The notes beneath the pieces were generated by a model, which worked only from the letters and a program-made list of their open reading frames with translations, was not told where the DNA came from and did not search any database. Position numbers and translations under genes: made by a program. Below are positions 21,335-47,819 of a stretch of DNA of 64,000 bases, one piece after another (within the stretch, counting starts at the first letter, position 1; each line of letters begins with the position of its first letter). Origin of the DNA: Rhodothermales bacterium (GTDB lineage Bacteria; Bacteroidota; Rhodothermia; Rhodothermales; Bin80); the NCBI GenBank assembly GCA_965215475.1, contig OZ244061.1, positions 2,176,619-2,240,618 of the forward strand. Reading direction: 5' to 3'.

Positions 21335-21518
21335 GACAATAAAAGATGGTTAGGTAAATGAAGGCCCTCGAAAAACAAGAAAAAATCGAAATCCAAGTGT
21401 GTCATCTTTTATTGGCACAGAGGGGTCATTGAACCTTTAAAGTCAACTCTTTTGAGGTTTGTTCAGCGTAGATAGGGCACGCGAAAAAACGTCTAAGATC
21501 AAATATTTTTCGTCAACC

Positions 21519-23906: not shown

Positions 23907-23907
23907 A

Positions 23908-26900: not shown

Positions 26901-27255
26901 CATAGCCCCGCCAATTTTGGTGCTGGAGTGTTGCTTGGTAGATCACATCTACGCCGCTATGGAGCGCGGCGACCGTTTGTTGAACTGCATCGGGTCCCCG
27001 CTCAATGGATACTACCGTTTTGCCTGCATTCCTGAGTAAGTTCAGGTAAGACTGTTCATGTTCATCCCCTAACTGACTGAGGAGTTCGAGATCCTGGGAA
27101 TTGGGGGTGACCTCAAGGTTCTCTCCATGTGCCTTTCTCAGATCCAGATGAGAAATATGCTTGCATGCGGAAAATCGTTGAAGATCCGATGCGTGGAGTT
27201 GTAGGGTGCCGTCTGAAGCCAGGTTCATGAATTTGGTATGATGGCCATGTTGCAA
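23908..27255 (-). CDS. RecB/Cas4-like PD-(D/E)XK nuclease + RNase H-like domain + SF1B (Dna2/Upf1-like) helicase fusion (TM0106-type)
   Basis: N-terminus: LHASDLQRFSACKH, YEVVDTKLK, CSECDLCRWRDRC (Cx2Cx5C cluster). Middle: FYDIEGNP...YHYAPYE (RNase H-like exonuclease fold as in TM0106-family proteins). C-terminus: Walker A VQGPPGTGKTY, FIDEAGQ, GDPCQLPQV, VDKFQGQE, NVALSRGK. The ORF begins with TTG at 27255; the first ATG is at 27228. Confidence 0.8.
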   Translation of the reverse strand: MQHGHHTKFMNLASDGTLQLHASDLQRFSACKHISHLDLRKAHGENLEVTPNSQDLELLSQLGDEHEQSYLNLLRNAGKTVVSIERGPDAVQQTVAALHSGVDVIYQATLQHQNWRGYVDFLERVKKPSSLGSYSYEVVDTKLKRTPAPKHILQLVIYSDLLGHIQGLQPEYGHLQLGGGNRSTHRLSEYTDYVRQLRERLTHFVENPETTIPRRCSECDLCRWRDRCNAEWEREDSLYLVAGIRGQQVTRLEEAGITTMEALAGVEKYDMVPKMAPQTLVNLHTQARLQVGRRKGSGPTSLLRPHVKGKGFDLLPEPDPGDLFYDIEGNPHYRENGEEGLEYLHGIWFRDQFKALWAHNHSEEHQKLRELFDFFRQQIEEFPNARIYHYAPYEMTALRRLTIKYSFGEEMLDGWQREKRFVDLYAVVRGGIFASEENYSLKSLEAFYMESRTGSVTTASGSIIAYNNWRLKQDAGDPTAAKDLAELEHYNQVDCESTEKLRDWLLSLRTGLTQSAPAELGIAQNERSLQQALNNEEFKEKIFDSSLHNQLKKNLINLGLFHYREKKPQAWAVFDASKKSFEDLIEDTDCLAGLHVKNRYPVDRSVEGIYSFPPQFTKLSAQKDACIAVDDTIKTVTIQDLDIKKREVTLRIGVRSSEYLMNTLDLLPSFAIRTEVIERAILRLIEQICSGNIPPAVIDLLDRNPPRLRDPSVLSRETLPSITRMQQTVSGMQSSVLMVQGPPGTGKTYVSARAILSLVRQGYRVAVSSNSHEAIRNVLTACANAAEEDPPVPTIIHKISSRTKMTSRPPYPVTTSSDSFDLFNAGIVGGTAWLFCREDMTDHFDYLFIDEAGQVSLANLFGMSMCAKNVVMIGDPCQLPQVIQASHPEPANLSCLEWMLGDRRLVESDKGLFLGETWRMHPKLCTYISEQFYEGRVYANPATAYQAILVSPFPEAGAYHVPVDHEEPRMQHCEEEGHAIQSVIQRLLEGSWRDRHQEIRQIKPEDIIVVAPFNAQVNMLRELLPDDIRVGTVDKFQGQEAAVALVSMTSTSADDTPRGMGFLLSRNRINVALSRGKALSLIFASPRLLASNCKTADQIRLVNALCALDTLNLNL

Positions 27256-27358
27256 AGTTACTGCCGTGTCCTTAATTTGTCGAAATCTACGGGATCAAGG
27301 GGACTCGATGATAAATTACCCGTATGGTAAGTATAAGTTAACCACTAATTTTTGTCTC

Positions 27359-28492
27359 ATGCGCAGGGTTTCATTAGTATTGATCATTGTTCTGGTGTTT
27401 ACGGCGACACATTTTTATTGGTCGGATGACCATCTTCCGTTAGAAAAAATTGTTTTGCCGGAAGGGTTTACGATTGAGGTGTACGCGGACAGCGTACCGA
27501 ATGCCCGACAAATGGCACTCTCGCCAAGTGGGGTACTGTACGTTGGTTCGCGTCAACATGGCAGTGTCCATGCCGTCGTGGATTCTGATGGTGACCTGCA
27601 CGCAGAGGAGTTGTTTCTAATTGCAGAAGATCTTGAGTTACCGACGGGATTAGCGTATCGAGACGGCTCGCTATATGTTGCTGCAGTCAGTCGCATTCTT
27701 CGCTATGATGATATTGACTCTCGGCTTCAGGATCCGCCAGAACCGGTTGTCATCGTGGACGATTTGCCAACGGAACGGCACCATGGATGGAAGTTTATCG
27801 CCTTCGGCCCAGATGGAAAGCTGTATGTGCCCGTAGGTGCTCCGTGCAATGTCTGTGAAGAGCCAGATCCTTTTGCTACGGTTCTGCGCATGAATGCAGA
27901 TGGGTCAGAAAGAGAAGTGTATGCACGGGGCATCCGGAATACGGTTGGGTTTGACTGGCATCCTGTGACGGGAGAGCTTTGGATTACAGATAACGGAAGT
28001 GACAATATCAGCCCGGATCCGGCCATCACAGATAATTTACCTTCCTGTGAATTGAATTACGCGCCAGAGCCTGGGCTGCATTTTGGGTATCCCTATTATC
28101 ACCAAGGAGATACCCCGGATCCTGAGTTTGGGGAAGGGCGCACGGAAGATGAGTTTATCCCACCTGTGATATTACTCGGTCCACATGTAGCCCCTTTAGG
28201 AATTGATTTCTATACGGGTTCGATGTTCCCAGAAGAGTATATGAATCAGGCGTTTATTGCCGAGCATGGATCATGGAATCGTAGGGAGAAAATTGGTTAT
28301 CGCATTAAACTGGTTCACTTTGATGAGGCTGGGATGGCTACAGGGCAGGAGGTTTTTGCAGAGGGTTGGTTGGATGGACAGGTTGATTGGGGTCGGCCCG
28401 TAGATGTTGAAACCCTTCCCGATGGATCGATTCTTATCAGCGACGATAAGGCGAATGCAATATACCGAGTCTCCTATTCGGATGACGAATGA
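27359..28492 (+). CDS. PQQ-dependent sugar (sorbosone/glucose-type) dehydrogenase family, membrane-anchored/secreted
   Basis: N-terminal TM MRRVSLVLIIVLVF, then GFTIEVYADSVPNARQMALSPSGVLYVGS..., HGWKFIAFGPDGKLYVPVGAPCN, RNTVGFDWHPVTGELWITDNG; a beta-propeller soluble aldose dehydrogenase-like pattern. Confidence 0.7.
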   Translation: MRRVSLVLIIVLVFTATHFYWSDDHLPLEKIVLPEGFTIEVYADSVPNARQMALSPSGVLYVGSRQHGSVHAVVDSDGDLHAEELFLIAEDLELPTGLAYRDGSLYVAAVSRILRYDDIDSRLQDPPEPVVIVDDLPTERHHGWKFIAFGPDGKLYVPVGAPCNVCEEPDPFATVLRMNADGSEREVYARGIRNTVGFDWHPVTGELWITDNGSDNISPDPAITDNLPSCELNYAPEPGLHFGYPYYHQGDTPDPEFGEGRTEDEFIPPVILLGPHVAPLGIDFYTGSMFPEEYMNQAFIAEHGSWNRREKIGYRIKLVHFDEAGMATGQEVFAEGWLDGQVDWGRPVDVETLPDGSILISDDKANAIYRVSYSDDE

Positions 28493-28764
28493 ATACGTTT
28501 GGGCATGAGTATCGGAGTGTCATTTTATTTCGGCAAAAGACACACCGTGCATGTGTAAAAAGATTATAATCTTCTCTAAGGCGTTTTCCAGAGATTTTCC
28601 GGGAAGCGGGGGTCTGCTGAGTTCCCCACGTTTTTGAGCGAGTCAAGATCATTATTGGATGTGGACATTTTCAAACGGAGGGCGATGGGGGGATTCGTGA
28701 TGTTGGAGATGGAAGAGATTCAAGGGTTTACATTTCTACTCAAGACTTCTAATTCCATCCTCCA

Positions 28765-29259
28765 ATGAGCCAGAACTCTGATCTGAAACGTGCTTATCTC
28801 CGTCATTCGAATCACCAACTGGCGGAGATCCTGTTTCACTCACCGTACATACAGGTATCGGGCAAAACTCTGGTGCCACAGAATACGCCGCGCGTACCTC
28901 AAGGACTAGAAGAAGAGCGTAAAGCATACACGCACGGTCAGATGAAAAAAGAATTGATTGATCGTTTGGGTTCACCTACTGTTGCTGACAGGATGATCCT
29001 CTCGGCCGGTTATGCACATTTGCATTATTGCCGCGGAATATATCAGGTACGAGCTGCCAAGGACGATCAAACACAGATATTTGAAACCGATCCACGCGAA
29101 GGAGTCCCGGTATCCCTTGCAAAAAAATACGCCGCAGAACTGATTGAGAAGGGAAAGGAGAATGAGAGGTGGACCATTTCGGTCCTATTGGAAGATGAGG
29201 ACGAAGAAATATATATTGCGAACCTGCTTGATCTCACGAAGGCAGTCCGGCGAGGGTAA
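28765..29259 (+). CDS. hypothetical protein (164 aa)
   Basis: Isolated clean ORF; no motif recognised. Confidence 0.45.
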   Translation: MSQNSDLKRAYLRHSNHQLAEILFHSPYIQVSGKTLVPQNTPRVPQGLEEERKAYTHGQMKKELIDRLGSPTVADRMILSAGYAHLHYCRGIYQVRAAKDDQTQIFETDPREGVPVSLAKKYAAELIEKGKENERWTISVLLEDEDEEIYIANLLDLTKAVRRG

Positions 29260-33542: not shown

Positions 33543-34883
33543 ATGGCGCACGACATTTTCGAACGTATAGGAAAATCTATTGAGTTACGTTTAGCCGCGA
33601 TCGCTCTGATCACATTGATCTTGATGATCCCTCTTGCCATTGTGGGGGAGCTCATCAATGATCGCAGCGAGCGGCGTGATGAAACACTATCCAATACAGG
33701 GAACGAATGGAGTGGAAAACAGACCCTCCTGGGGCCTGTGATGGTTGTTCCGTATTCTAGTTCCGAATACGTTAGTGGTACATTGGGGGAATCTCCGGGA
33801 ACCGTACGTTATGCGTTTTTTCTTCCAAATACACTCACGATTACGGGCACGGTTGAACCAGAAATCCGGTACCGGGGGATCTATCAGACGATCCTATATT
33901 CTGCAGATCTTACCATCAGTGGAAGCTTCCCGGAAGCAGACTTTAGCCGGTGGTTGATTAACGAAGAGGATATTCGGTGGCAGGAGGCCTTTATTGCATT
34001 TGGGATCACAGATATGCGAGGGATCAAGGACGAGATTCTCGTTAACTGGGCGGATACATCGTTGACCTTTGTTTCAGGGATGCAGGAAGCAAGCATATTG
34101 GCACCGGCAGGAGTCCGTACTTCCGTGGTCGCAAATGAGCCTGGCGAGTTCCAATTCAATCTTGGACTTGATGGGAACGATGAGTTGATGTTCATTCCTG
34201 TGGGCAAAACGACACGGATTGACCTTTCCTCCTCATGGCCCTCGCCCAGCTTCCGTGGGGCTTTTCTTCCGGATGAGCGAACGATTACAGAAGATGGTTT
34301 TTCTGCCAGTTGGCAGGTTCTGGATTTAAACCGGGCATTTGGGCAGTCGTGGCGTGGGGAAAGCGAAGACTTATTATTAGAATCTTCTGCGTTCGGCGTT
34401 TCACTCTATCCTCCGGTGGATCAATACCGCAAAACGCAGCGATCGACTCGTTATGGATTCTTGCTGATTGGTCTGACGTTACTGGCGTTCTTTTTGACGG
34501 AGATGCGGATCGGTCTGCGGGCACACTCCTTCCAGTATATATTAGTGGGATTGGATCTTTGTTTGTTCTTTTTAATGCTCCTTTCGCTTGGAGAGCACAT
34601 GTCATTCAATCTTGCCTACATCCTTTCCGGCATTGCAACGATCGGGCTCGCGGCCTTCTATGCCGGGGCAATGTATCGATCCCGTGGCGTTGGTTTGTTG
34701 ACGGCAGGCATCTTGGCTATTTTGTACACGTTTATTTTCCTGCTCTTGCAACTACAGGGCTACGCCCTTCTAGCTGGCAGCATTGGTCTTTACCTGCTTT
34801 TGGCACCTACGATGTATTTGACGCGCAATTTTTCAAATCTATCGGCATTATCCCGTTCAAAAAAGAGTAGCGATCCAGAGTGA
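33543..34883 (+). CDS. creD: cell-envelope integrity inner-membrane protein CreD
   Basis: 446 aa: an N-terminal TM, ELINDRSERRDETLSNTGNEWSGKQTLLGPVMVVPY, a large periplasmic part, and five C-terminal TM helices (YGFLLIGLTLLAFFL...). The family layout matches CreD. Confidence 0.8.
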   Translation: MAHDIFERIGKSIELRLAAIALITLILMIPLAIVGELINDRSERRDETLSNTGNEWSGKQTLLGPVMVVPYSSSEYVSGTLGESPGTVRYAFFLPNTLTITGTVEPEIRYRGIYQTILYSADLTISGSFPEADFSRWLINEEDIRWQEAFIAFGITDMRGIKDEILVNWADTSLTFVSGMQEASILAPAGVRTSVVANEPGEFQFNLGLDGNDELMFIPVGKTTRIDLSSSWPSPSFRGAFLPDERTITEDGFSASWQVLDLNRAFGQSWRGESEDLLLESSAFGVSLYPPVDQYRKTQRSTRYGFLLIGLTLLAFFLTEMRIGLRAHSFQYILVGLDLCLFFLMLLSLGEHMSFNLAYILSGIATIGLAAFYAGAMYRSRGVGLLTAGILAILYTFIFLLLQLQGYALLAGSIGLYLLLAPTMYLTRNFSNLSALSRSKKSSDPE

Positions 34884-34908
34884 TCCTTGCGCATGACGGA
34901 AAACTCTG
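34635..34908. repeat. direct repeat copy 1 (274 bp; creD 3' end plus 25 bp downstream)
   Basis: Base-by-base comparison with 37155-37428 (offset 2520) shows 6 mismatches in 274 bp. Confidence 0.97.
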
Positions 34909-35257
34909 CATCCTGTGAGGGATGCAAATAAAGTATGTGTGGAGTGATCAAGAGAGTGAAAGATGATGAAAAAAACTAGAAGTATTTTGTTTTGACGTGA
35001 TCATTGAAAAGAAAGAGGATTGGGGGAAAAGTTGAGAGTTTTGCGTCTCAGGGATGATGAAGAAGGCAACGAATCGCCGGCAAAGGCATGGAAGATATTC
35101 CGGAACGGTTTATCTTTTGAAGAACACAAGCGCGTTTTGTACGTGTGATTTACATCGGATCATCGCCGATCAACCCCCTAGGAGTAAACAACCGGTTCCC
35201 TGCGACCTGAACGCCCCAGAGGCTACCATTTATGCAAGTAAAAAACGGCAACCAATC

Positions 35258-36610
35258 ATGAACTTCCAATCACGAACTATTCTCGTCGGACTCCTCCTGA
35301 TGCTCCCCGTATTGGGAGAGATCAACGCCCAAAGCCAAGACATAGAAGAACTTCAACAGCAAGCCAACGAGGGAAATCTTGAAGCCCAGTTTGAACTCGG
35401 AGCCCTTTACTTCAATGGAGATGGCGTCGAACAAGATTACACGCAGGCAGCTCACTGGTACAGGAAGGCTGCGGAACAGGGACACACAGGCGGGCAATTC
35501 AATCTCGGACTCCTTTACTTCAATGGATATGGCGTCGAACAAGATTACACGCAGGCAGCTCACTGGCTCAGGAAGGCTGCGGAACAGGGACACACAGGCG
35601 GGCAATTCAATCTCGGACTCCTTTACTTCAATGGATATGGCGTCGAACAAGATTACACGCAGGCAGCTCACTGGTGCAGGAAGGCTGCGGAACAGGGACA
35701 CACAGGCGGGCAATTCATTCTCGGATTCCTTTACTTCAATGGAGATGGCGTCGAACAAGATTACACGCAGGCAGCTCACTGGCTCAGGAAGGCTGCGGAA
35801 CAGGGATACGCAGATGGGCAATACAATCTCGGACTCCTTTACTTCAATGGAGATGGCGTCGAACAAGATTACACGCAGGCAGCTCACTGGTACAGGAAGG
35901 CTGCGGAACAGGGAGACGCAGATGGGCAATTCCGTCTCGGAGTCCTTTACTTCGGTGGAGATGGCGTCGAACAAGATTACACGCAGGCAGCTCACTGGTA
36001 CAGGAAGGCTGCGGAACAGGGACACACAGGCGGGCAAGTCAGTCTCGGATTCCTTTACTTGAATGGAGATGGCGTCGAACAAGATTACACGCAGGCAGCT
36101 CACTGGTACAGGAAGGCTGCGGAACAGGGACACACAGGCGGGCAAGTCATTCTCGGACTCCTTTACGACAATGGAGATGGCGTCGAACAAGATTACACGC
36201 AGGCAGCCCACTGGTGCAGGAAGGCTGCGGAACAGGGACACACAGGCGGGCAATTCAATCTCGGATTCCTTTACTTGAATGGAGATGGCGTCGAACAAGA
36301 TTACACGCAGGCAGCTCACTGGTACAGGAAGGCTGCGGAACAGGGAGACGCACATGGGCAAGTCATTCTCGGACTCCTTTACGTCAATGGACAGGGCGTC
36401 GAACAAGATTACGCGCAGGCCTACGTATGGTTAATCATTGCCAAGGCTAATGGTGGGCTAACGGAAGAAATGACCGAATCCCTTGAAGAAGAAATCACCA
36501 GTCTACGTGGCATACTCACCCCCGTGCAGATCAATCAAGCTCAAAAGCGAGCGTCCCAACTCTACGAAGTAATTCAGACGCGCATTGCAAACAGCGACTC
36601 AGCGAACTAA
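35258..36610 (+). CDS. secreted Sel1-like repeat (SLR/TPR-like) protein
   Basis: Signal peptide MNFQSRTILVGLLLMLPVLGEINAQ, then about 10 consecutive 36-aa units GDGVEQDYTQAAHWYRKAAEQGHTGGQFNLGLLYFN (Sel1 consensus). The tracked ORF starts upstream at 35054, but ATG 35258 precedes the signal peptide. Confidence 0.88.
   Translation: MNFQSRTILVGLLLMLPVLGEINAQSQDIEELQQQANEGNLEAQFELGALYFNGDGVEQDYTQAAHWYRKAAEQGHTGGQFNLGLLYFNGYGVEQDYTQAAHWLRKAAEQGHTGGQFNLGLLYFNGYGVEQDYTQAAHWCRKAAEQGHTGGQFILGFLYFNGDGVEQDYTQAAHWLRKAAEQGYADGQYNLGLLYFNGDGVEQDYTQAAHWYRKAAEQGDADGQFRLGVLYFGGDGVEQDYTQAAHWYRKAAEQGHTGGQVSLGFLYLNGDGVEQDYTQAAHWYRKAAEQGHTGGQVILGLLYDNGDGVEQDYTQAAHWCRKAAEQGHTGGQFNLGFLYLNGDGVEQDYTQAAHWYRKAAEQGDAHGQVILGLLYVNGQGVEQDYAQAYVWLIIAKANGGLTEEMTESLEEEITSLRGILTPVQINQAQKRASQLYEVIQTRIANSDSAN
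35417..36388 (+). repeat. tandem array: nine near-identical 108-bp units (coding Sel1 repeats)
   Basis: Unit starts (GGA GAT/TAT GGC GTC GAA CAA GAT TAC) are read at 35417, 35525, 35633 ... 36281, exactly 108 bp apart, with partial or diverged units on both flanks. Confidence 0.95.
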
Positions 36611-36698
36611 TCCAGTAGAGACGCGCCCTCTGCACATCCATTCCAGTATATATTATCCTGCATTTCCATCACATAACATGGGATAACATTTAGGCGGA

Positions 36699-37154
36699 CT
36701 AAACTTTGAGGAGTTTATTACCGAGCCATGGTATCGGCTGTTCCGTTTTATAGTAGTCAGCACGAATAAAGAGTGGGTTGCACGCTCGCCTGGCAACGTC
36801 ACCCGGATTTCTTTTTCGGTAATCTGGATCCTTGCTCGTTTTGGGATTAATTCTCGGAACAGGGTGCGGGTTTCTACAGCGCCCTATCGCTCCTCGACTC
36901 GAATCACAAGGAGTCGATACAAAAAACGGGCAATGACCGTACGCTGTACCTCGACATGAATTTTCATCTGGACTGCCGAACTGAGTCATCCATGTGGAAG
37001 AAGCCAATTGTATCACTGATCACATTTTCAATAACCATGTGACGGGCATATCGGTCGATGAGGGTGGATACCGCTGCCTTGGTGAGTAGGAAGATGATAT
37101 GATCTTGTCCGAGCCCCTGAACTGCAATTTGACGAACAGATCTCGGATACTCAC
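36699..37154 (-). pseudogene. C-terminal fragment of a DDE transposase (IS4-like), frameshifted and 5'-truncated
   Basis: Own translation of the minus strand gives ...IIFLLTKAAVSTLIDRYARHMVIENVISDTIGFFHMD, then a shift to LSSAVQMKIHVEVQRTVIARFLYRLLV, then further shifts to ITEKEIRVTLP and RRACNPLFIRADYYKTEQPIPWLGNKLLKV*. This resembles transposase C-termini with Y..R...IEN...FFH.D.LSS motifs (from memory). The fragment ends exactly at the DR2 junction. Confidence 0.5.
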
Positions 37155-37428
37155 GCAACGATCGGACTCGCGGCCTTCTATGCCGGGGCAATGTATCGAT
37201 CCCGTGGCGTTGGTTTGTTGACGGCAGGCATCTTGGCTATTTTGTACACGTTTATTTTCCTGCTCTTGCAACTACAGGGCTACGCCCTTCTAGCCGGCAG
37301 CATTGGTCTCTACCTGCTTTTGGCACCTACGATGTATTTGACGCGCAATTTTTCAAATCTATCGGCATTATCCCGTTCAAAAAAGAGCAGCGATCCAGAG
37401 TGATCATTGCGCATGACGGAAAACCCTG
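37155..37428. repeat. direct repeat copy 2 (274 bp; orphan creD 3' fragment)
   Basis: See copy 1. It encodes the last 82 codons of CreD, and every one of them matches the creD copy at the amino-acid level. The tracked 70-aa ORF 37191-37403 is this fragment. Confidence 0.97.
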
Positions 37429-37457
37429 TGGGGAATTGAAGCCTATTCGGCTATGAT

Positions 37458-38624
37458 TTATTCGGGTATCATATCTTTCCAAGGGAGGATGTCAATATCT
37501 TTTCTGCGCTGCGGCTCATCACCTCCATAGACGACTGTTGCAGAGCACTCAAAAGAGGTTTTGTCAAAATGCTTCCGTACCCGGCGGAGGTTCGTCAGTA
37601 GATTTGAGGAGGCGGTTGCCGTTGATTTGGCTTCGATCAGTTGAAGATGGGAGGGAGTCTCAATGATGAGATCTACTTCTGCTCCATTTTGATCCCGATA
37701 AAAGGACAGTGCTCTTGTTGTTTCTCCGAGATTTGTTTGATGTTTGACAAATTCCGAGACCATCCAGGTTTCAAAGATGGCGCCGCGAAGGGGATGGGTA
37801 CGCAGCTGCTCGGGGGATCGAATCCCCAATAGCCAACAAACCAGTCCGGTATCGTAGAAGTGGATTTTGGGCATTTTCACCAGTCTCTTGCGCAGATTTA
37901 CATGAAAGCTTTTCAAAGGAAAGGCAATAAAACTCGCTTCAAGGACACTGAGCCAAGCCTTCGCAGTTGGCTGAGAAATTCCACAATCTCCAGCGATCGA
38001 TGAGAAATTGAGTAGCTGAGCCGTTCTTCCAGCACACAGTTCAACGAAACGCTGAAATCTGGAAAGGTCCCCAATATTGCTGATCATTCTTACATCCCGC
38101 TCAACATAGGTGTTCACATAGTTTCGCAGCCAATCGGTAGGCTTTAAACCTGAATCAAAGATTCGTGGATAAGAGCCAAAAAAAAGGGCTTCTTCCAGGG
38201 TCTGAGGATGCTGAGGGAAGCTTGAAATTTCTCGCCAAGTCAGCGGAAGCAAGTTGAAAATTGCGGTTCTCCCCGCAAGGGACTGACTGACAGATCCGGA
38301 TAAGAGAATGTTTTGTGAGCCGGTAATGATCCACTTTGCGGGATCAGGGGCTTTATCAACGATCTCTTGTAAATACGAGAGCAGATCTGGAGTCCGCTGG
38401 ATCTCATCAATGATCGCTCCTTGAGGAAACTGTGCAAGGAATCCGCGAGGATCTTCCAAAGCAAAAGCTCGATGATCTGGAGCTTCCAGGTTGATGTAGG
38501 CATGATCACAAAACACGGCTTGGCACAAAGTGGTCTTGCCACTTTGCCGGGGACCTGTGATGGTAATCACGGGAAACGCTTCGGCAGCATCCTTTATTTT
38601 TTGTGTTATTTCACGTGGGACCAT
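37458..38624 (-). CDS. AAA-family ATPase with DUF4143-type C-terminal domain (COG1373-like)
   Basis: VITITGPRQSGKTTL Walker A, IIDEIQ Walker B, and C-terminal GAIFETWMVSEFVKH, typical of the AAA_14 + DUF4143 architecture. Confidence 0.78.
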   Translation of the reverse strand: MVPREITQKIKDAAEAFPVITITGPRQSGKTTLCQAVFCDHAYINLEAPDHRAFALEDPRGFLAQFPQGAIIDEIQRTPDLLSYLQEIVDKAPDPAKWIITGSQNILLSGSVSQSLAGRTAIFNLLPLTWREISSFPQHPQTLEEALFFGSYPRIFDSGLKPTDWLRNYVNTYVERDVRMISNIGDLSRFQRFVELCAGRTAQLLNFSSIAGDCGISQPTAKAWLSVLEASFIAFPLKSFHVNLRKRLVKMPKIHFYDTGLVCWLLGIRSPEQLRTHPLRGAIFETWMVSEFVKHQTNLGETTRALSFYRDQNGAEVDLIIETPSHLQLIEAKSTATASSNLLTNLRRVRKHFDKTSFECSATVVYGGDEPQRRKDIDILPWKDMIPE

Positions 38625-38755
38625 TTTAAGGATAAATAAAGATAAAATCTTGAATCATCCTAAATATAATGCTTTTACCTCATTTGAAACTTGCAAAGGC
38701 AAATGAGAATTTCACAGGAATGAAACCTTTTGACAAAAAATATGTCAAAAGGAAT

Positions 38756-39103
38756 ATGACCATGCAAGAACTTACCAAAGTGACGGGATGCACCGCCCGT
38801 CAGGTGCGTTATCTGATTGCCGAAGGCTTCGTACCGCCGCCGACAGGAGGGAGGGCTAATGCGGTATACGGGGAGGTTCATATATCGGCGATTGAGCAGT
38901 ATCAATATCTGCGTACAGCAGGGTTTTCTCCGGCCTCAATCCGGTTATTGATGGAGGCCCAAACAGGGGTACCATTCCAAATAATTCCAGGTGTATCACT
39001 CATGATTAACGCAAATCTGATTGCCGAGCAAGTCTCCATGGATGAGTTGGAGGAGCAAATCAAATCAGTACTGAAGCAAATTTTTTCTAAACAAGACAAA
39101 TAG
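38756..39103 (+). CDS. MerR-like HTH protein
   Basis: MTMQELTKVTGCTARQVRYLIAEGFVPPP...YGEVHISAIEQYQYLRTAGFSPASIRLL fits a MerR-type HTH plus wing. The tracked ORF starts at 38669; I prefer the Met at 38756. The stop lies 8 nt before the vWA gene. Confidence 0.6.
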   Translation: MTMQELTKVTGCTARQVRYLIAEGFVPPPTGGRANAVYGEVHISAIEQYQYLRTAGFSPASIRLLMEAQTGVPFQIIPGVSLMINANLIAEQVSMDELEEQIKSVLKQIFSKQDK

Positions 39104-39110
39104 AATTCCA

Positions 39111-41357
39111 ATGACAAAAAGTACAGTTTCATCTGATTCTGCAACAGCTGACTTATTGAAATTGCCACATTTCCCTGAGCGGAGACGTCATCATGACCCA
39201 TTTGCAGACCTGGTGCATCGTGACTCGATAACGAATGATGCGCCGATGATAAAACTGGATTTCCATGTAACGATTCGTGGTGGTCTGGCTTTTGTAAAAG
39301 CAAAACGAACATACATCAACAAAACCAATGGCCCGATTGAAGCTGTGATGAGTCTGCCTGTATCGATTCATGCAGCATTTTTTGGGTTAAGTGCAGTGAT
39401 TGATGGGAAGCATTACGATGCTCAGGCAAAACCAAAGCAGGAAGCACTGGAGACATACGAAGAGGCGATTGATGAAGGCAAGGCAGCTGTACTGCATGAA
39501 GAGTTACTGCGAGGGATTCATTCGATTTCAGTGGGTAATCTTGGCGTAGGGAAAACGGTCATGATTACGGTTCGCTGGGCAGAGTTGCTGCGGTTTCATG
39601 ATGGCGTGGGTCAGTTGCGAATTCCTCTTTCCGTGGGAGATGTATATGGAATATCTCCATTGGAGGATGTGGATACACTAACTGTGGGAGGTCCTATCCC
39701 TGAGGCTACACTTCACATGCAACACGATGCAGAGAGTGTAGAATTAGCTGGCGGTAATTTGCGTCGTGAGGAGGGGGAGGTTTATTCGACAAAAATCCCA
39801 GGCAATGCTCCAATTGAACTGAAGGTGACCGGCGTAGCCCCTTCAGAATTGACCGGTATAAGCCGAGGCGGTCGTCCAGTGACTCTTCAAATATCTCCGC
39901 GCAAGAAACAACGGGTTCCTCTGAATGCCGCCGTACTTGTGGACAGATCAGACTCTATGGGTGCCCAGTGTACATATTTCGATGGGAACTCAGAAACTCG
40001 GCATGAAGCCGTAGTTCGCGGTTTACGTGAACTGCAGCCATTGCTGATAGATCAGGATCGCCTAGCTTTATGGGAGTTCGATACGGATTGTGACAGGGTA
40101 GGGGAATTTACGTCCAACAATCCAAGGGAATTTGGAAGGTTACTCACGAAGCTAAGTGGTCCTCGTGGGGGCACGGCCATCGGTAGGGCCTTAGAAAAGG
40201 TAGGTGCCTCTGAAGAAGGCAAGGACATTTTGTTGATCACCGATGGGCAAAGCTATGATTTAGATGTTCAACGGTTGGCAAAGTCGGGACATCGAATATT
40301 TGCGGTTCTGGTGGGAGAAGGGAGTTTGGAGGCGATGGTTGGGCATCTGGCCGTGCTTAGTGGAGGGGATCTTCATTTCAGTTTTGGGGCAGATGTTGAT
40401 CAGGCGATTCAGGCTTGTATAGAAGGGATGCGCCAAAAACCCAATCAGGGCGCACATTGTGATTTAGATGAAATAGGTTTGCCAGAACGTGTGGTGACGG
40501 TGCAAGGGAATGCGACGATTGAGGCATCTTGGTCCCAGGCAGTTGAGAATCCCCACGTCAATAGCGAATTCTCGGAAGCGGTTGCGGCCTATGCAGCCAG
40601 TTTGGCTTTTGCAGGTGCAGAGGAAGAATGGGCAGCGAGCATAGCAGTTCAGGCTGGATTAGTTACACACCTGACCAGTCTTGTACTTGTAGCTAAAGAT
40701 GCTCAGATCCAAGAAGAGTTGCCAAGGACAATCAAACAGTCACTACCTACTGTGCGAGAAACGGTGTTATGTTTCATCGCTCCATCCATTCGTCATGCGT
40801 CGGCACCAGATCCAAGAAAATATTATTCATCTATTGATCATTCTCGAACGGAATCTTTGGGTGAGATGGATCAGTCGTTGAGTAGCTCTCCCCTGAGCCC
40901 ATCGATTCTGGGGGGGGATATAGATGACAACCCACAAGCCCAGAATACGACTCTACATCCCATATTCAAGTCATCACCGAGTATTGATTGGGATACCATC
41001 GTAAGCTTAGGCAAGCAGATAGATTGGAATACCGAAGGATCCAAGTTGGCCCGTGGTGAGCTTAGAGGAATTCCAGAAGATATTGCAAAAGAAATCACGA
41101 ACTTGGCTGGCAAGGTAGCAGATTTCACGAATCAAATTACTGCGTCTCGACAGAAGTGGGCACTTATTTTTGTAATTGCCCTTGCGGCTTATGCAGTTCA
41201 AGGAGATTCCAAGTGGGCAGCTAGGGTATATCGAAAGATTATTAAAGAAAATAAGATGGTGCCAGAATTAAGTGGTTTAATCCTGATGTATGTTCGCTGG
41301 ATTACAGGTGAGTGGAAGAATCCAGAATCCATTACCGATCGGGATTCAGGAAAGTAG
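39111..41357 (+). CDS. VIT domain + von Willebrand factor A (vWA) domain protein with long C-terminal extension
   Basis: VIT-like N-terminus (LDFHVTIRGGLAFVKAKRTYINKTNGPIEAVMSLPVSIHAAFFGLSAVIDGKHYDAQAKPKQEALETYEEAIDEGKAAVL). vWA with MIDAS DxSxS (AAVLVDRSDSMG ... GGTAIGRALEKV ... ILLITDGQ). About 300 aa of uncharacterised C-terminus with one hydrophobic helix (WALIFVIALAAYAV). Confidence 0.8.
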   Translation: MTKSTVSSDSATADLLKLPHFPERRRHHDPFADLVHRDSITNDAPMIKLDFHVTIRGGLAFVKAKRTYINKTNGPIEAVMSLPVSIHAAFFGLSAVIDGKHYDAQAKPKQEALETYEEAIDEGKAAVLHEELLRGIHSISVGNLGVGKTVMITVRWAELLRFHDGVGQLRIPLSVGDVYGISPLEDVDTLTVGGPIPEATLHMQHDAESVELAGGNLRREEGEVYSTKIPGNAPIELKVTGVAPSELTGISRGGRPVTLQISPRKKQRVPLNAAVLVDRSDSMGAQCTYFDGNSETRHEAVVRGLRELQPLLIDQDRLALWEFDTDCDRVGEFTSNNPREFGRLLTKLSGPRGGTAIGRALEKVGASEEGKDILLITDGQSYDLDVQRLAKSGHRIFAVLVGEGSLEAMVGHLAVLSGGDLHFSFGADVDQAIQACIEGMRQKPNQGAHCDLDEIGLPERVVTVQGNATIEASWSQAVENPHVNSEFSEAVAAYAASLAFAGAEEEWAASIAVQAGLVTHLTSLVLVAKDAQIQEELPRTIKQSLPTVRETVLCFIAPSIRHASAPDPRKYYSSIDHSRTESLGEMDQSLSSSPLSPSILGGDIDDNPQAQNTTLHPIFKSSPSIDWDTIVSLGKQIDWNTEGSKLARGELRGIPEDIAKEITNLAGKVADFTNQITASRQKWALIFVIALAAYAVQGDSKWAARVYRKIIKENKMVPELSGLILMYVRWITGEWKNPESITDRDSGK

Positions 41358-41840: not shown

Positions 41841-42728
41841 TTATTCAGGAATGACCGAAATCTCATCTTCTGTGGGGAAATTCTCAGGCACAGGTAGAGT
41901 AACTTCACCAGTTGCCAACCATTCTGCGCTACGCTGAAGCAGGGTCCGAAAGCCCACACATCGAAGTGCGCGATCATCTATCTGTCCGTCCCATAAATGA
42001 CCGGGTAGTAAGGTCAAGACTTTCCCTTCCCCGAATTGGATCCACCAGATCATAAGTTCATGTCTTCCCGTTCCCCCGGGTTCTGTTTCACTCCATGCAG
42101 TTGCAAGCACATTCATCCCTTCTGCCGGACCGCGCTGACCATGATAGAGTTCATCATGGGGATGTAGCCATACTTCTGGTAATCCAGTCATAATTGGATG
42201 TTCGGAATCTCGAGTTGTGATGATCCAGTCGTGTAACCGTCCATGTCCAGCACCTCGGTCTTCTCCGGGGTCTATACGAATTAACCCGATCTCTTCATCC
42301 CAATAGGCCCCATACCCCACCTCTTTTCCCCTCCATAAAAGCCCGACCATTGTTTCATAGGCCTCCCATTCTGGAAAGGGATTGTTTGCGGCGTGCTGAA
42401 CCAAAACACTCCCTCCCCCCGAAACATATTCCTCAAAGCTTTTTCGAACACGTTCCGGCCACAGTTCTCCATTGTACGCTAATAGGACCATATCATAGGC
42501 ATCAAATGCAGGGTTCCAATCCTCCCAAGCTTGTTGATCTGCTTCTTTGCCCGGGGTCAAGGTTATATCAATCGAAAACATGTCTGCGTCTAGGAGAGTG
42601 CGTTCAAGATGTATTATCGTGCGCTCCCAATCATGATTGTTCTGCCCAGATACAATGAGGACAGAGGACGGATTCGGGATTCCAATCGCTAAGGCTAAGC
42701 CCCAGAAGAGGTATATCGCGGTAATCAT
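41841..42728 (-). CDS. ThuA-domain protein (second paralog in window)
   Basis: VLIVSGQNNHDWERT..., WNPAFDAYDMVLLAYNGELWPE..., VLVQHAANNPFPEW; ThuA-like pattern with a signal/anchor N-terminus. Confidence 0.72.
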   Translation of the reverse strand: MITAIYLFWGLALAIGIPNPSSVLIVSGQNNHDWERTIIHLERTLLDADMFSIDITLTPGKEADQQAWEDWNPAFDAYDMVLLAYNGELWPERVRKSFEEYVSGGGSVLVQHAANNPFPEWEAYETMVGLLWRGKEVGYGAYWDEEIGLIRIDPGEDRGAGHGRLHDWIITTRDSEHPIMTGLPEVWLHPHDELYHGQRGPAEGMNVLATAWSETEPGGTGRHELMIWWIQFGEGKVLTLLPGHLWDGQIDDRALRCVGFRTLLQRSAEWLATGEVTLPVPENFPTEDEISVIPE

Positions 42729-43068
42729 TTTGTATCTTATGACGAAATGTGATAGAGTTCAAGTATACGAAATCTCTTAATTGATAATTGCGTACTTTGC
42801 AAAAAAGATTTGTGAAATCTTGTGATTTGATCCAACAACAGAAACGAATTTCATCGGCTTAGAATTGAGTTGGTACCCAGAAGGTTCATGTTAGAGTGGT
42901 CTGCGCTTTATCAAAGAGCTAATCCAATCTCTTGGCCATTAGAACAGTATTCTAAGATCTTTGATGTGCTCGGTTAGTATGAGAGTCGGCATGCTTTTGG
43001 GAGTTACAAGCAATAACGACAACAGGGCGAACGTCAATTAGGCCTCAAAAACTTTCCTTGATACGAAA

Positions 43069-44508
43069 ATGGATTGGACAGGACTGCAGCCCGAGATGAT
43101 TCGAAGCGAGCTAGTGGAAATTGTGGGGGAGCCACATGTATCCACCGATGAATCGGATCGGCTTGTATATTCCACGGATTGGTTTTGGCTACCACAGATG
43201 TGGCTCGATCGTGGAGAAACCCCTCGTAAACCCGACTATATTGTGAGGCCAGGGAGTGCAGAGGAGATTTCAGAGATTCTTAAGGTAGCCAACAACTATC
43301 GGATTCCGGTTATCCCGTGGGGAGGTGGATCTGGCTCCCAAGGTGGTGCTTTACCTGTGTTCGGAGGAATTATTCTGGATACAAAGCGGATGAATCGGAT
43401 TATTGAGATTGACGAAAAATCTCTCACAGTCACGGCAGAAGCTGGTATCAACGGGAAGCAATTGGAATGGGCGGTGAACGAGAAGAGACTTATGCTTCCA
43501 CATTATCCCGCATCAGCAAACTGTGCAACACTTGGGGGATATTTAGCTCCGCGTGGGACAGGGACCATCAGCAATAAGTATGGGAAGGCAGAAGATCTTG
43601 TGCTACGTATGCAAGTGGTTTTACCCGACGGACACATTTTACGTACACCGATTGTGCCTCAACATGCATCGGGGCCGGATTTTTATCGTCTTTTCCTGGG
43701 ATCCGAGGGAACGTTCGGAGTGATCACCGAAGCAACGATGCAACTGGACTATCTACCCAACTGTCGGCTTCTTCGTGCAGTTCTCTTTGATGACTTGACG
43801 AAAGCACTCGAAGCTGGGCGCCAGATTATGACACGCCGGTTAGATCCTTTTGTCATCCGCTTGTATGATCCTCGCTCAACTGCCTCCCGGGTGAAGAAGA
43901 TCTTGGGGTATGAGCTTGAAGGGGCCTATATGGTCATTGGATTTGATGGTGATGAAGAGATCGCAGTTTTACAGGAGCAGAAAGCGATGGAGATCATTAA
44001 CAAATTCGGGGCGAAGGATCTTGGACGAGAACCTGGAGAAGCCTGGTGGAATCAGAGATACGATTTTTATTATCCACCTCAAAGTCTCAAGTTGCCCTGG
44101 ATGTATGGGACCACAGAAACCGTGACAACTTACGATAAAATCGAAAAGCTATACTTCGCAGAAAAGAAAGCGGTGGAAGAAGGATTCAAAGAATGGGACA
44201 TTGACTTCATTGGTCATTTTTCTCACTGGTTTCACTGGGGGGTGATGGTTTACACACGGTTCATTATTCAAAATCCACCCGATGATGCCCGTGAAGCCGT
44301 AAGATTGCATAATCGGGTATGGAATACAGCGATGACGGCAGTACTGGAAAACGGTGGGATGGTGAATGAGCATCACGGTGTCGGACTGAAGCTTTCGCGC
44401 TTCATGCGCCGTCAGTATGGAGATGCATGGCCATTACTGGAAAAGATCAAGAGATCGCTGGATCCAAACGGGATCATGAATCCAGGTAAAGTAGGGTTTG
44501 GACATTAG
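43069..44508 (+). CDS. FAD-linked oxidase (GlcD / alkyl-DHAP-synthase-like, FAD_binding_4 + C-terminal cap)
   Basis: IVRPGSAEEISEILKVANNYRIPVIPWGGGSGSQGG, LGSEGTFGVITEATMQL, C-terminal NEHHGVGLK...DPNGIMNPGK. Confidence 0.85.
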   Translation: MDWTGLQPEMIRSELVEIVGEPHVSTDESDRLVYSTDWFWLPQMWLDRGETPRKPDYIVRPGSAEEISEILKVANNYRIPVIPWGGGSGSQGGALPVFGGIILDTKRMNRIIEIDEKSLTVTAEAGINGKQLEWAVNEKRLMLPHYPASANCATLGGYLAPRGTGTISNKYGKAEDLVLRMQVVLPDGHILRTPIVPQHASGPDFYRLFLGSEGTFGVITEATMQLDYLPNCRLLRAVLFDDLTKALEAGRQIMTRRLDPFVIRLYDPRSTASRVKKILGYELEGAYMVIGFDGDEEIAVLQEQKAMEIINKFGAKDLGREPGEAWWNQRYDFYYPPQSLKLPWMYGTTETVTTYDKIEKLYFAEKKAVEEGFKEWDIDFIGHFSHWFHWGVMVYTRFIIQNPPDDAREAVRLHNRVWNTAMTAVLENGGMVNEHHGVGLKLSRFMRRQYGDAWPLLEKIKRSLDPNGIMNPGKVGFGH

Positions 44509-44516
44509 TAGCCCCC

Positions 44517-45611
44517 ATGAACACCGTCATCAACGCGATAGAGAACTGCCGCTTCTGTCTGATGTGCAGACATGTGGCTCCTGTGGGGCATGTGACACAT
44601 AACGAATCTCTTACGCCCCATGGCATTGCTTTGGTTGCTTCCATGCAACGCCATAAAAATCTTCCTTGGACCGTCAGTTCCTTGGATGTCCTCTATGCAG
44701 AACCCGATGGGGGAAATTGTCGAGCTCATTGTGTTACCGACCAGCCCTTGCCCGCTGCGATTGCTGCCATTCGTGCCGAGGTAGCGAAGGATGGGCTTGC
44801 CCCCGTCGCAATCAAACAGATCCATGATCGAATCCAGACGAATCATTCGGTCTTTGGGAGTTATCAGCCGACAGCATCACAAGGCAAATGGGGACTTTTC
44901 GTAGGAGATGCAGGCTTCAATCTTGCCCCAAAAACCATGCAGGCAGCTTTGGAGCTAGTCACTGCCTGTGGAATCGATGCAGTTCCCATAGGTCGAGGAC
45001 TTGACAGCGGATTTATTCCCTGCTCTCTTGGATATCCCGATACGGCCCGCAAGCAGGCCAAGTTGTGTATGGATGAATTGCAGGGGGGCGGTGTGAAGAA
45101 GTTATTGGTACTTTCGCCTCAAGATCTTTTCGCCTTTTCTCAGATGTATGAAGAACGATTAGGGCTGCCTTGGCCCGAAGAGGTTGTTCTGATAGATCTA
45201 GTTGATTTTCTGGCGGACCAAATTCGGGACGGACATCTCAGGATTAAGCCATTGCCGAAGACCACGCAGAATCTTACGGCCTATGTGGATCCTACACATG
45301 CGGTTCGACTTCCCGCGCGCTTTGATGATGCGCGCACACTTTGCAAAGCCGCATTAGGAGGTCCTCCTTTGGAATTATTCTGGCGCCGTGAACGTGCCCA
45401 TCCTGTCGGAAGTACGGCGATCCAGTTTACACGCCCAGACATCGGAATTCAACTTACAGAATCGCGGCTGCACGATGCCATGAGCCGAGGAGCACAAACC
45501 CTTTTGTGTGATGATCCTGCAACACTCTACGAGCTCGGTCTCCGAAATAATCATCCGATGAAGGTTCAGTGTCTGTATGAATTGTTATTTGCACAGTTAT
45601 CAGAGGGGTGA
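44517..45611 (+). CDS. (Fe-S)-binding protein with CCG-type domains (GlcF/heterodisulfide-reductase-like)
   Basis: N-terminal cluster CRFCLMCRHVAP; the C-terminal halves resemble Cys-rich CCG repeats (…VLSPQDLF…, …LLCDDPATLYEL…). It follows the FAD oxidase after an 8-nt gap. Confidence 0.65.
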   Translation: MNTVINAIENCRFCLMCRHVAPVGHVTHNESLTPHGIALVASMQRHKNLPWTVSSLDVLYAEPDGGNCRAHCVTDQPLPAAIAAIRAEVAKDGLAPVAIKQIHDRIQTNHSVFGSYQPTASQGKWGLFVGDAGFNLAPKTMQAALELVTACGIDAVPIGRGLDSGFIPCSLGYPDTARKQAKLCMDELQGGGVKKLLVLSPQDLFAFSQMYEERLGLPWPEEVVLIDLVDFLADQIRDGHLRIKPLPKTTQNLTAYVDPTHAVRLPARFDDARTLCKAALGGPPLELFWRRERAHPVGSTAIQFTRPDIGIQLTESRLHDAMSRGAQTLLCDDPATLYELGLRNNHPMKVQCLYELLFAQLSEG

Positions 45612-45613
45612 TC

Positions 45614-47763: not shown

Positions 47764-47819
47764 CAGGCAGGACGAAAGGTACAATCAATCCAATCCTCTG
47801 CTACCAAATGATTGATCAA

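Follow-up and report, generated by a model that had tools for sequence, protein, structure and literature searches.

A close described counterpart of the arrangement reported here is prophage e14 of E. coli, in which icd extends into the prophage and icdC, a C-terminal pseudogene, lies at its far end; the two icd copies carry conservative differences, and recombination between them removes the insert and yields a chimeric gene (PMC13626634). When a circular molecule entered the E. coli chromosome by one crossover, 109-950 bp of the homologous segment ended up duplicated (PMC3240628), and homology-facilitated illegitimate recombination (HFIR) has been invoked to account for gene 3′ ends that were displaced and now lie as orphans further down (PMC5361080).

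The locus analysed here lies in a 64-kb window, i.e. the whole stretch of 64,000 nucleotides that was studied, from a Rhodothermales bacterium. As in e14/icd, a gene 3′ end, here that of creD, occurs twice around inserted DNA, the upstream copy keeping the gene intact and the downstream copy forming an orphan. Unlike e14, an element of about 15 kb with its own site-specific recombination and SOS-induced excision, the insert is only 1.7 kb long and carries one passenger gene, no integrase was found, and the site is unused in 13 related loci. We consider it probable that the locus is a recombination scar rather than a working device, formed when the insertion of a Sel1 block duplicated the end of creD and later altered by an insertion sequence (IS), a deletion and gene conversion. 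The scar is ordinary in kind, though well preserved. The following features were recognised:

33543-34883, plus strand: intact creD, 446 aa (Pfam CreD, NCBIfam CreD, synteny)
34521-34908, plus strand: creD 3′ segment of 388 bp, presumably the part originally duplicated (relic and DR2 joined)
34635-34908, plus strand: DR1, functional copy of the 274-bp repeat (repeat search, direct comparison)
34905-34928, minus strand: hairpin at the DR1/cargo junction, putative terminator (terminator-like site from a scan; junction alignment with relatives)
34909-36631, plus strand: true inserted block of 1723 bp, comprising 349 nt ahead of the Sel1 gene, the gene itself and 21 nt (blastn, strain comparison)
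35258-36610, plus strand: gene of a Sel1-repeat protein, 450 aa from the ATG at 35258, hydrophobic N-terminus (Pfam Sel1)
36632-36655, plus strand: 24-nt creD relic, left stub of the orphan copy, directly abutting the IS outer end (matches creD 34521-34544)
36653-37154, minus strand: IS1380-like (IS4-superfamily) remnant with the outer inverted repeat and the last ~150 transposase codons, two frameshifts, 5′ two-thirds deleted (profile search, BLASTP, tblastn)
37155-37428, plus strand: DR2, right part of the orphan creD 3′ end, joined to native downstream sequence (repeat search, relatives)
37458-38624, minus strand: AAA_14/DUF4143 ATPase gene, native convergent neighbour of creD (Pfam, PADLOC, synteny)

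The CreD protein matched Pfam CreD with E=2.5e-138 over profile positions 2-425 of 428 and the NCBIfam CreD equivalog with E=8e-136, and it is identical to protein P0126, encoded on a 3.71-Mb contig. The gene gcvP lies directly upstream of creD, as it does in all relatives (synteny with L001-L010), and the convergent neighbour was identified as an ATPase by Pfam (DUF4143, E=1e-49; AAA_14, E=1e-27) and PADLOC (PDC-S01, E=9e-101). In nine loci of other species (L001, L003, L004, L005, L006, L010, L015, L016 and L017) creD is followed directly by the homologue of the sequence from 37429 onwards, with the ATPase gene adjoining. None of the 13 loci examined from related Rhodothermales has a second creD 3′ end: at each, either the site is empty or creD ends only once. 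The empty site postulated in the first-pass annotation is thus present in relatives, and this synteny supports an insertion into an ancestral creD-ATPase arrangement. The hairpin at 34905-34928 stands in place of the palindrome CCCCATGGGG that in the relatives belongs to the native convergent terminator between creD and the ATPase gene, and uses the same T-run; judged from its position, it probably serves as the terminator of this gene pair.

The two repeats are 274 nt each, spaced by 2520 nt, and align without gaps at 98% identity, and the sequences flanking them on either side are unrelated to each other. Our own comparison gave exactly six mismatches, as many as counted before (34646, 34775, 34790, 34868, 34886 and 34905). 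Checked codon by codon, the first four are indeed silent third-position changes in the creD frame (GGG/GGA Gly, GCT/GCC Ala, CTT/CTC Leu and AGT/AGC Ser), and the remaining two lie 3 and 22 nt past the TGA stop. Four silent changes out of four would have a probability of ~0.004 (all substitutions) to ~0.02 (transitions only) if codon position were random, so the pattern of differences is non-random. The earlier statement that the repeat is much too long for a transposition target-site duplication is likewise supported.

The same junctions occur in another strain of the same species, assembled from other samples (L014, ERZ25072152, and L011, ERZ25068762, whose coverage is limited to the 24-nt relic and the IS remnant, together with DR2 and the genes beyond it). 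This strain differs from that of the window by 1.4-7%, and L011 and L014 agree at every DR2 site except for two single-base insertions private to L011. As the junctions are identical in the second strain, the structure is a real, old insertion and no assembly artefact.

The interval between the repeats (34909-37154, 2246 bp) contains the Sel1-repeat gene, whose product matched Pfam Sel1 with E=1.5e-115 and 10 repeats. The gene is built of ten 108-bp tandem units (35288-36559), mostly 86-96% identical to the reference unit, with two end units at 74% and 62%, and in strain L014 it has 7 units fewer. The inserted block 34909-36631 is present in L014, gave no blastn match in L001-L010, is absent from all other species examined and has no further copy within the 64-kb window. 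A scan of the 2.2 kb and of ORFs up to ~15-20 kb away detected no integrase or recombinase domain, and no tRNA or known RNA was found in or near the block.

The transposase fragment between the Sel1 gene and DR2 gave no direct Pfam or NCBIfam match; its identity as a broken transposase, proposed in the first-pass annotation, was confirmed by a profile search, in which it matched the C-terminal part of ~550-585-aa proteins. These proteins carry DDE_Tnp_1 (E=7e-11 in P0133) and score below the cut-off of the NCBIfam IS1380 model (E=2e-21). The fragment aligned with residues 428-552 of P0133 (BLASTP, E=9e-28), and the homology begins at the codon straddling 37154/37155, which bears out the claim that the fragment ends exactly at the DR2 junction. 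The reading frame changes at 36985/36988 and ~36791 (tblastn). As in the IS1380/IS4-superfamily, the remnant protein aligns with the C-terminal region of ~580-aa DDE_Tnp_1 transposases and the outer end is similar to the inverted repeat in a full-length relative; this terminus was located by aligning the remnant with the complete IS in L018 (inverted repeats 2700-2728 and 4788-4816), a family member with only 42% protein identity. Unlike intact IS1380 elements, the remnant retains only the C-terminal ~125-150 aa, about a quarter of the gene, with two frameshifts, and hence cannot be active.

Beyond the outer end of the IS, positions 36632-36655 match creD 34521-34544 at 21 of 24 nucleotides. 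The match is short and beats 200 of 200 dinucleotide shuffles, though narrowly: its local alignment score is 36, the shuffles scored 25 +/- 2.4 with a maximum of 35, and none of the 200 reached 36. The motif CCATTCC of the relic is also present in the creD of relatives L001, L010 and L015. Relic and DR2 are colinear and in the same orientation with the IS remnant between them, so the orphan copy would once have been at least 388 bp long, i.e. the last 363 nt of creD including the stop and 25 nt downstream, before the IS and a deletion divided it. The earlier description of a 2246-bp insert carrying the Sel1 gene and a broken transposase is therefore right about the two elements, and not about the extent of the insert: since a creD relic lies beyond the IS outer end, the IS remnant sits inside the orphan copy, and the cargo is confined to 34909-36631.

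The first-pass annotation had read the six differences as those between a native and a foreign allele, acquired under purifying selection in two genomes and preserved since. All four coding differences are silent, as this reading expects, and a second allele would indeed come in if an occupied allele recombined with an empty one. When the differences were polarised with the second strain and outgroups, however, five of the six proved private to the functional copy DR1 of the window and only 34646 fell on the orphan; selection on the working gene alone then suffices for the silent-only pattern. Within the 274-bp repeat, eight sites, one of them a 3-nt insertion, sort the copies according to strain and no site sorts them according to copy, whereas in the 24-nt relic two sites group by copy and none by strain (Fisher P=0.022); the comparison covers two haplotypes, the second from contigs of 2-3x coverage in which some private differences may be errors. 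Paralogues within a strain are closer (6 and 14 differences) than orthologues between strains (17 and 17). These patterns indicate that gene conversion has homogenised the 274-bp copies within each strain, and the behaviour of the relic shows that the duplication is older than the strain split and that only the long repeat is being homogenised. The signal of allelic origin sought in the earlier reading is thereby erased. Moreover, the orphan of strain L014 has two amino-acid changes (34710 I>V and 34729 T>M), and by our own count the orphan lineages hold 3 non-synonymous against 4-6 synonymous changes, not significantly off neutrality. All four repeat copies are equidistant from each outgroup, with 39-44 differences to L001 and L010, so neither DR1 nor DR2 stems from a different species; one of them may have been supplied by a donor within the same population. 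Taken against these results, preserved native and foreign alleles are unlikely.

Mutation and conversion in their simple form leave two observations partly unexplained. Between strains, DR1 has diverged at silent sites 3.5-fold more than the upstream genes (11 in 78 codons vs 52 in 1313, P=4e-4), which speaks for a second allele, and the private changes in the window number 5 on the constrained copy vs 1 on the orphan (P=0.004). To account for both, one would need either conversion from the orphan to the gene in one strain or the import of another allele.

Duplicated tuf genes and rRNA operons are examples of concerted evolution by gene conversion. The creD repeats resemble such dispersed repeats in that paralogues within a genome are more alike than orthologues between genomes, and differ from them in that one partner is a non-functional 274-bp fragment.

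The history that we propose starts from a gcvP-creD-ATPase locus, with creD and the ATPase gene convergent, in the ancestor of this Rhodothermales species. The 1.7-kb Sel1 block (34909-36631) would have been put into the terminator just past creD, and the terminal ~388 bp of the creD region (34521-34908) would have been duplicated in the process; creD remained whole with the upstream copy, and the one downstream, still attached to the native ATPase flank, was left as an orphan with no function. An IS1380-like element would then have entered the orphan at the equivalent of ~34541-34545, and a deletion would have taken the 5′ two-thirds of the IS and 90 bp of orphan creD, leaving the 24-nt stub, the 0.5-kb IS remnant and the 274-bp DR2. 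The reverse order of the block insertion and the IS insertion and deletion is also possible. After the strain split, RecA-type gene conversion between the 274-bp copies probably recurred in each strain; the copies would for this reason still be 98% identical here, and the remaining differences, mostly on the selected functional copy, would be silent.

Judged from topology, the duplication most likely arose by one homologous crossover within creD and one illegitimate join, either when a circular DNA with the Sel1 gene and a creD 3′ end integrated by a single crossover (Campbell-type), or when a linear fragment of sister-strain DNA recombined by HFIR. This combination of exchanges is shared with both processes, and the presumed 388 bp falls in the range of 109-950 bp (PMC3240628). 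Those were laboratory events with plasmids or transforming DNA, whereas no donor, circle or microhomology was observed here, so that the match is one of outcome only; clear microhomology was not established at the novel junctions 34908/34909 and 36631/36632. At Rhs, CDI and T6SS effector loci, too, an incoming 3′ end with a passenger gene is anchored on the conserved part of a gene and pushes the old end downstream as an orphan (PMC5361080). There, however, a new toxin tip and an immunity gene change the function, whereas here the two ends specify one and the same peptide, with an unrelated Sel1-repeat protein as the passenger.

A degraded site-specific island of the e14/icd type, whose attP brought a replacement creD 3′ end that displaced the native one and which later lost its integrase and most of its length, e.g. 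by an IS-associated deletion, is quite unlikely. Its layout would fit that of e14, and a deletion did happen right beside the orphan, but no integrase or recombinase domain was detected in the 2.2 kb and the scanned ORFs up to ~15-20 kb away, and the 13 related loci with nothing integrated at the creD 3′ end argue against a recurrent att site. Furthermore, the orphan begins at 36632, immediately behind the 21 nt that follow the Sel1 stop, and any further island genes would have required a second exact deletion. A replication error within one genome by template switching (MMBIR/FoSTeS-like) is very unlikely; the creD terminator hairpin would have stalled a fork, which then took 1.7 kb of a Sel1 locus elsewhere in its own chromosome as template and resumed 388 bp upstream, giving a templated insertion with a flanking duplication. 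Such an error would place the left junction well, at the centre of the terminator palindrome, where the insert starts with another hairpin on the same T-run, and would need no second genome, donor DNA or circular intermediate; the block has no second copy in the window, however, and the process is poorly documented in bacteria compared with single-crossover integration.

The IS1380 family, including ISEcp1, mobilises DNA past its right end. The remnant is distantly IS1380-like and the Sel1 gene lies beyond its right end, so one-ended (ISEcp1-like) mobilisation of Sel1 together with creD sequence was considered and found highly improbable: the DR2 junction is within the transposase gene and not at an IS end, transposition duplicates a few bp and not 274-388 bp, and creD rather than Sel1 lies immediately outside the IS right end, which indicates that the IS landed in creD sequence. 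A mis-join or a collapse of strain variants is hardly credible, even though the chromosome is evidently metagenome-assembled and the 2% difference between copies resembles strain variants, because the order DR1-cargo-orphan-ATPase and its junctions recur in independent assemblies (L014, with L011 from the relic to the downstream genes), the entire structure is only 2.8 kb long, and the IS remnant and deletion mark the orphan independently.

For the organism, the recombination scar favoured here means that homologous recombination between DR1 and DR2 can still delete or amplify the Sel1 cassette. As one partner is non-functional, conversion can also feed neutral changes of the orphan into the working creD; an additional Asp and a P>S replacement, both in the CreD tail of strain L014, may illustrate such orphan-to-gene conversion.

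The segments 34635-34908 (DR1, the functional copy of the creD 3' end) and 37155-37428 (DR2, the orphan, i.e., the displaced copy) form a 274-nt direct repeat with six mismatches and no gaps, and the flanks of each copy are unrelated. The factual statements of the first-pass annotation were all confirmed: four mismatches (34646, 34775, 34790 and 34868) are silent third positions within creD, and the remaining two (34886 and 34905) lie 3' of the stop codon. The chance of four out of four coding changes being silent under random substitution is P ~0.004-0.02. The repeats are separated by 2246 bp which, as described earlier, hold a Sel1-repeat gene and a transposase fragment. The locus comprises the following features:

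33543-34883, creD (Pfam CreD PF06123, E=2.5e-138, profile positions 2-425 of 428)
35258-36610, Sel1-repeat gene with ten tandem units
36632-36655, 24-nt match to creD (the relic)
between the repeats, minus strand, transposase remnant (profile search and BLASTP)
37458-38624, AAA_14/DUF4143 ATPase gene adjoining creD

The creD product is a member of the CreD family with a full-length profile match; it scored 453 bits against the NCBIfam equivalog NF008712 (cut-off 275) and is identical to the database protein P0126, encoded on a contig of 3,710,873 bp. The CreD relatives in the genome collection all belonged to Rhodothermales MAGs (70-91% protein identity), and a JGI metagenome scan with CreD gave no relatives. 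The empty site foreseen in the earlier annotation was found in nine loci from other assemblies (L001, L003, L004, L005, L006, L010, L015, L016 and L017), in which creD is followed directly by the homologue of 37429-38680, the region of the convergent ATPase gene. These genomes show ~82-84% DNA identity to the window, or less, and therefore represent other species. As a second creD 3' end was present in none of the 13 related loci searched within +/-10 kb, the arrangement in the window is a derived insertion, unique to this lineage.

The CreD protein P0004, 99% identical to that of the window, is encoded on L014 (43.8-kb contig, ERZ25072152) and on a contig of 3,709,413 bp. Together with L011 (5.8-kb contig, ERZ25068762), which is 99.8% identical to part of it, L014 represents a second strain of the same species; the haplotypes found for this species come from two strains, both occupied by the insertion. 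The order in L014 is that of the window (creD with DR1, upstream region, Sel1 gene, IS remnant, DR2, ATPase), the junction sequences are the same, and substitutions amount to 1.4-7%, depending on the segment. Because order and junctions are shared with a contig from another sample, an assembly artefact, raised previously as a possible source of the structure, is very unlikely.

At the position corresponding to window ~36673-36677, L014 carries a complete 2.3-kb IS1380-family insertion sequence (IS; L014 12383-14685) with a 530-aa transposase (NCBIfam IS1380, 224 bits) and the inverted repeats CCCCCCTTATTCATCTCAA and CCCTTCTTATTCATCTCAA, flanked by ATAAC. The window reads ATAAC-ATGGG-ATAAC at 36673-36687, that is, both 5-bp target copies with five extra bases, of which the last three are the IS-terminal GGG. 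Such a sequence resembles the footprint of an excised IS more than a site that was never occupied, a reading that is unproven. The two strains also differ in CreD. At 34527, within the creD segment matched by the relic, the window has Ser (TCC) where L014 and the compared related species have Pro (CCC/CCA), and the C-terminal tail of the L014 protein shows an extra Asp and a P>S change; these small protein differences cluster within the repeated segment or close to it.

When the three reading frames of 36699-37191 were scanned directly against Pfam and NCBIfam, the transposase remnant had no match. A frame-corrected translation led to three short ORFs in other assemblies and from these to a profile matching 977 proteins, including full-length proteins of ~550-585 aa that aligned only over their last ~110-125 residues. 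The full-length relatives carry DDE_Tnp_1 (E=7e-11), and the remnant itself matches only the C-terminal end of this domain (positions 145-198, E=0.02; database protein P0001). In BLASTP, the window fragment aligned to residues 428-552 of the full-length relative P0133 (E=9e-28), starting at the codon straddling 37154/37155, so that the fragment does end exactly at the DR2 junction, as had been noted. The remnant is homologous to the DDE transposase domain (IS1380-like, IS4 superfamily). P0133 and another full-length relative, P0157, scored 76 and 73 bits against NCBIfam IS1380, below the cut-off of 180, and the family of the remnant is a distant relative of IS1380, not a curated member of it.

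The outer end of the IS was placed by alignment to a full-length element with 29-nt inverted repeats (L018 2700-4816). This alignment begins in the coding region, comes within 1 nt of the L018 IRR terminus and puts the window terminus at ~36653/36654; approximately 12 of the 16 terminal nt match the IRR, a comparison of a single end, the left one being deleted. Truncated C-terminal remnants of the same IS family are present in other Rhodothermales contigs (L012 10001-10498 and L013 1044-1541), and their proteins, P0002 and P0003, are 57-58% identical. An intact copy closer than ~42% identity was not found, and the family appears largely extinct in this Rhodothermales group.

Directly outside the IS end, the repeat search revealed the relic, which matches creD 34521-34544 at 21 of 24 positions and is colinear with DR2 across the IS. 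Its score of 36 compares with 17 +/- 2 for shuffles in a 340 x 200 nt comparison; when the whole 5' part of creD was compared with the whole 2246-bp interval on both strands, the score was again 36, and shuffles gave 25 +/- 2.4 with a maximum of 35 (0 of 200 reached 36). The relic has CCATTCC, as does creD of related species, where creD of this species has CCTTCC. On the simplest reading, the orphan would originally have been a copy of creD 34521-34908 (388 bp), which the IS entered at the position equivalent to ~34541-34545. A subsequent deletion would have removed the 5' two-thirds of the IS (~428 codons and the left end) together with 90 bp of creD (34545-34634) and formed the 37154/37155 junction. 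In this reconstruction, the true insert is probably 34909-36631 (1723 bp), and the transposase fragment is a later arrival in the orphan rather than cargo; we regard it as likely rather than certain because the relic is short.

The left side of the locus retains the native continuity gcvP-creD-DR1 and the right side that of orphan and ATPase, and the novel junctions are 34908/34909 and 36631/36632. One homologous exchange within creD combined with one illegitimate join would produce this topology. Either a circular DNA that bore the Sel1 block together with a creD 3' end may have integrated, or a linear fragment of an 'occupied' sister allele may have entered by homologous exchange upstream and an illegitimate join at 34521. 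The flanking duplication (274 bp observed, 388 bp reconstructed) fits the product expected of single-crossover integration or homology-facilitated illegitimate recombination (HFIR). Single-crossover integration in E. coli gave duplications of the homologous segment of 109-950 bp (PMC3240628), and HFIR has been put forward to explain how gene 3' ends are displaced and left as orphans (PMC5361080). The left junction lies at the centre of the creD/ATPase terminator palindrome, and the cargo opens with another hairpin on the same T-run; breakage or template switching could plausibly occur there. At 36631/36632, the sequences show only a possible 2-nt overlap (GC). A replication template-switch within one genome would be a further alternative.

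The locus could also, with low probability, be a degraded island of the e14/icd type, and direct repeats of the creD 3' end do border both ends. However, the defining enzyme is absent from the scanned region: no Pfam or NCBIfam match to a tyrosine or serine recombinase occurred in 34909-37154, and none was found in ten large ORFs (18433-29259 and 41841-58687) or in the neighbours at 37458-41357, which leaves the cognate integrase envisaged by the first-pass annotation without a candidate in these regions. Nor does the arrangement recur, since the site is not reused in the 13 related loci (+/-10 kb). A large tandem duplication followed by deletion was rejected as requiring more events, and no second cargo copy lies within 27 kb downstream. 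One-ended mobilisation of the IS1380/ISEcp1 type was rejected because the DR2 junction falls inside the transposase gene and creD lies outside the right end of the IS. Target-site duplications in transposition are typically 2-14 bp and lie immediately outside both element ends; such an origin was rejected, in line with the earlier assessment that the repeat is too long, as it measures 274 bp (~388 bp as reconstructed), with one junction inside the transposase gene and the other at no IS end. A tRNA-type attachment site was rejected because there is no tRNA or tmRNA in 30-42 kb and no Rfam match at E<=0.1 in 33-39 kb.

To follow the copies after the insertion, DR1 and DR2 of both strains were aligned with outgroups, and the variable sites were tabulated. 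At eight sites (34718, 34793, 34805, 34808, 34818, a GAT insertion after 34871, 34875 and 34882), both copies of one strain share a state that differs from the other strain, and by comparison with the outgroups at least three of these are derived in each strain. Nowhere in the 274 bp is there a site that distinguishes DR1-type from DR2-type sequences across strains. Paralogues differ at 6 (window) and 14 (L014) positions, and orthologues at 17 and 17. The grouping of sites by strain and the closer similarity of paralogues than of orthologues are the signature of concerted evolution, i.e., gene conversion between the repeats after the strain split, and the pattern in the four sequences needs at least one event per strain. 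The relic shows the opposite pattern, with two copy-specific sites across strains and no strain-specific ones (Fisher P=0.022); it is too short and isolated for conversion. These copy-specific sites prove that the duplication is older than the strain split.

Five of the six differences in the window are private to DR1 (34775, 34790, 34868, 34886 and 34905), and the orphan has only 34646, for which the chance of a single change being silent is 0.26-0.38. Silent changes on a selected gene need no special explanation, and the proposal that both copies diverged under purifying selection in different genomes was not supported by the sites on which it rests. The L014/L011 orphan carries two amino-acid changes (34710 I>V and 34729 T>M), and the changes in the orphan lineage, three non-synonymous against 4-6 synonymous, do not depart significantly from the neutral expectation by our own calculation. 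All four copies are equidistant from each outgroup, so neither copy came from another species; a donor from the same population is possible. Silent divergence of DR1 between the strains is high (11 in 78 codons vs 52 in 1313 codons upstream, P=4e-4), and private changes are in 5:1 excess on the constrained copy (P=0.004). These values would follow if the older-diverged orphan had overwritten the functional end in one strain, or if another allele had been imported. The extra Asp and the P>S change of the L014 CreD, both situated beyond the end of the Pfam domain (residue 430) in an unconserved tail, would fit conversion from orphan to gene. Since selection on one copy together with homogenisation gives the same picture, differences between gene and orphan that are all silent do not show selection on both copies, which is a caution for work from sequence only.

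The Sel1 units of the window (35288-36559) are 108 bp (36 aa) each, repeated ten times and mostly 86-96% identical in DNA. The L014 gene (L014 11761-12315) encodes a 184-aa protein with three units against ten; this difference of seven means that the repeat number changes quickly between strains. A homology search with the Sel1 protein was dominated by generic Sel1 proteins with at most 60% identity and gave no pointer to the source of the cargo, and neither the cargo nor the IS nor the Sel1 gene occurs a second time in the 64-kb window. Host-interaction roles in symbionts are frequently discussed for proteins of the Sel1-repeat class, and the locus with its rapidly changing passenger therefore marks a strain-variable trait.

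The neighbourhood is variable as well. The ATPase and ThuA genes are separated by a MerR-family regulator gene and a gene for a 748-aa VIT/VWA-domain protein (38669-41357); in L003, L015 and L016, ThuA comes almost immediately after the ATPase, and 38669-41357 is therefore a second strain- or species-variable insertion adjoining the studied one. A PADLOC match (E=9e-101) links the ATPase itself to the candidate defence family PDC-S01. Gene calling divides the ATPase gene of L014 into two parts (86 aa and 209 aa), which may reflect real decay or a low-coverage sequencing error. Defence-type genes occupy 49487-57287, where a Type IIG restriction-methyltransferase of 1360 aa (PADLOC REase_MTase_IIG, E=2e-295) is encoded next to a 1142-aa HKD(PLD)+Snf2 helicase (PADLOC C3a139, E=6e-62, and DrmD-like matches). 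After these come the gene for an AAA ATPase (57518-58687) and two large ORFs without annotation (58933-63374).

In outcome, the locus is like e14/icd-icdC (PMC13626634) and like Rhs/T6SS C-terminal displacement; in mechanism, integration of the Campbell type or by HFIR is the closest parallel, and after the insertion it behaves as dispersed repeats under gene conversion do. No new kind of element is involved; the locus is one more example of known processes. The analysis adds that the repeat was probably once longer, that the IS probably hit the orphan secondarily and that the silent pattern reflects selection on one copy with homogenisation. It is highly improbable that the eukaryotic-like Sel1-repeat gene is a reversible, integrase-free cassette that spreads between strains, anchored to a housekeeping-type gene at its conserved 3' end, with the 274-bp repeats kept alike by conversion and allowing it to be switched off by deletion, switched back on or amplified. 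If true, the cassette would bring the spare gene end with it and would be a general way in which uncultured Rhodothermales shuffle host-interaction genes. The repeats are predicted to leave the Sel1 cassette deletable or amplifiable by homologous recombination, which could matter for strain variation. On its own, the locus is a local piece of genome history. It provides a clean natural case in which a lineage of uncultured Rhodothermales captured a foreign gene and duplicated a gene end without any integrase, and it illustrates how IS insertion, deletion and gene conversion then overwrite such scars.
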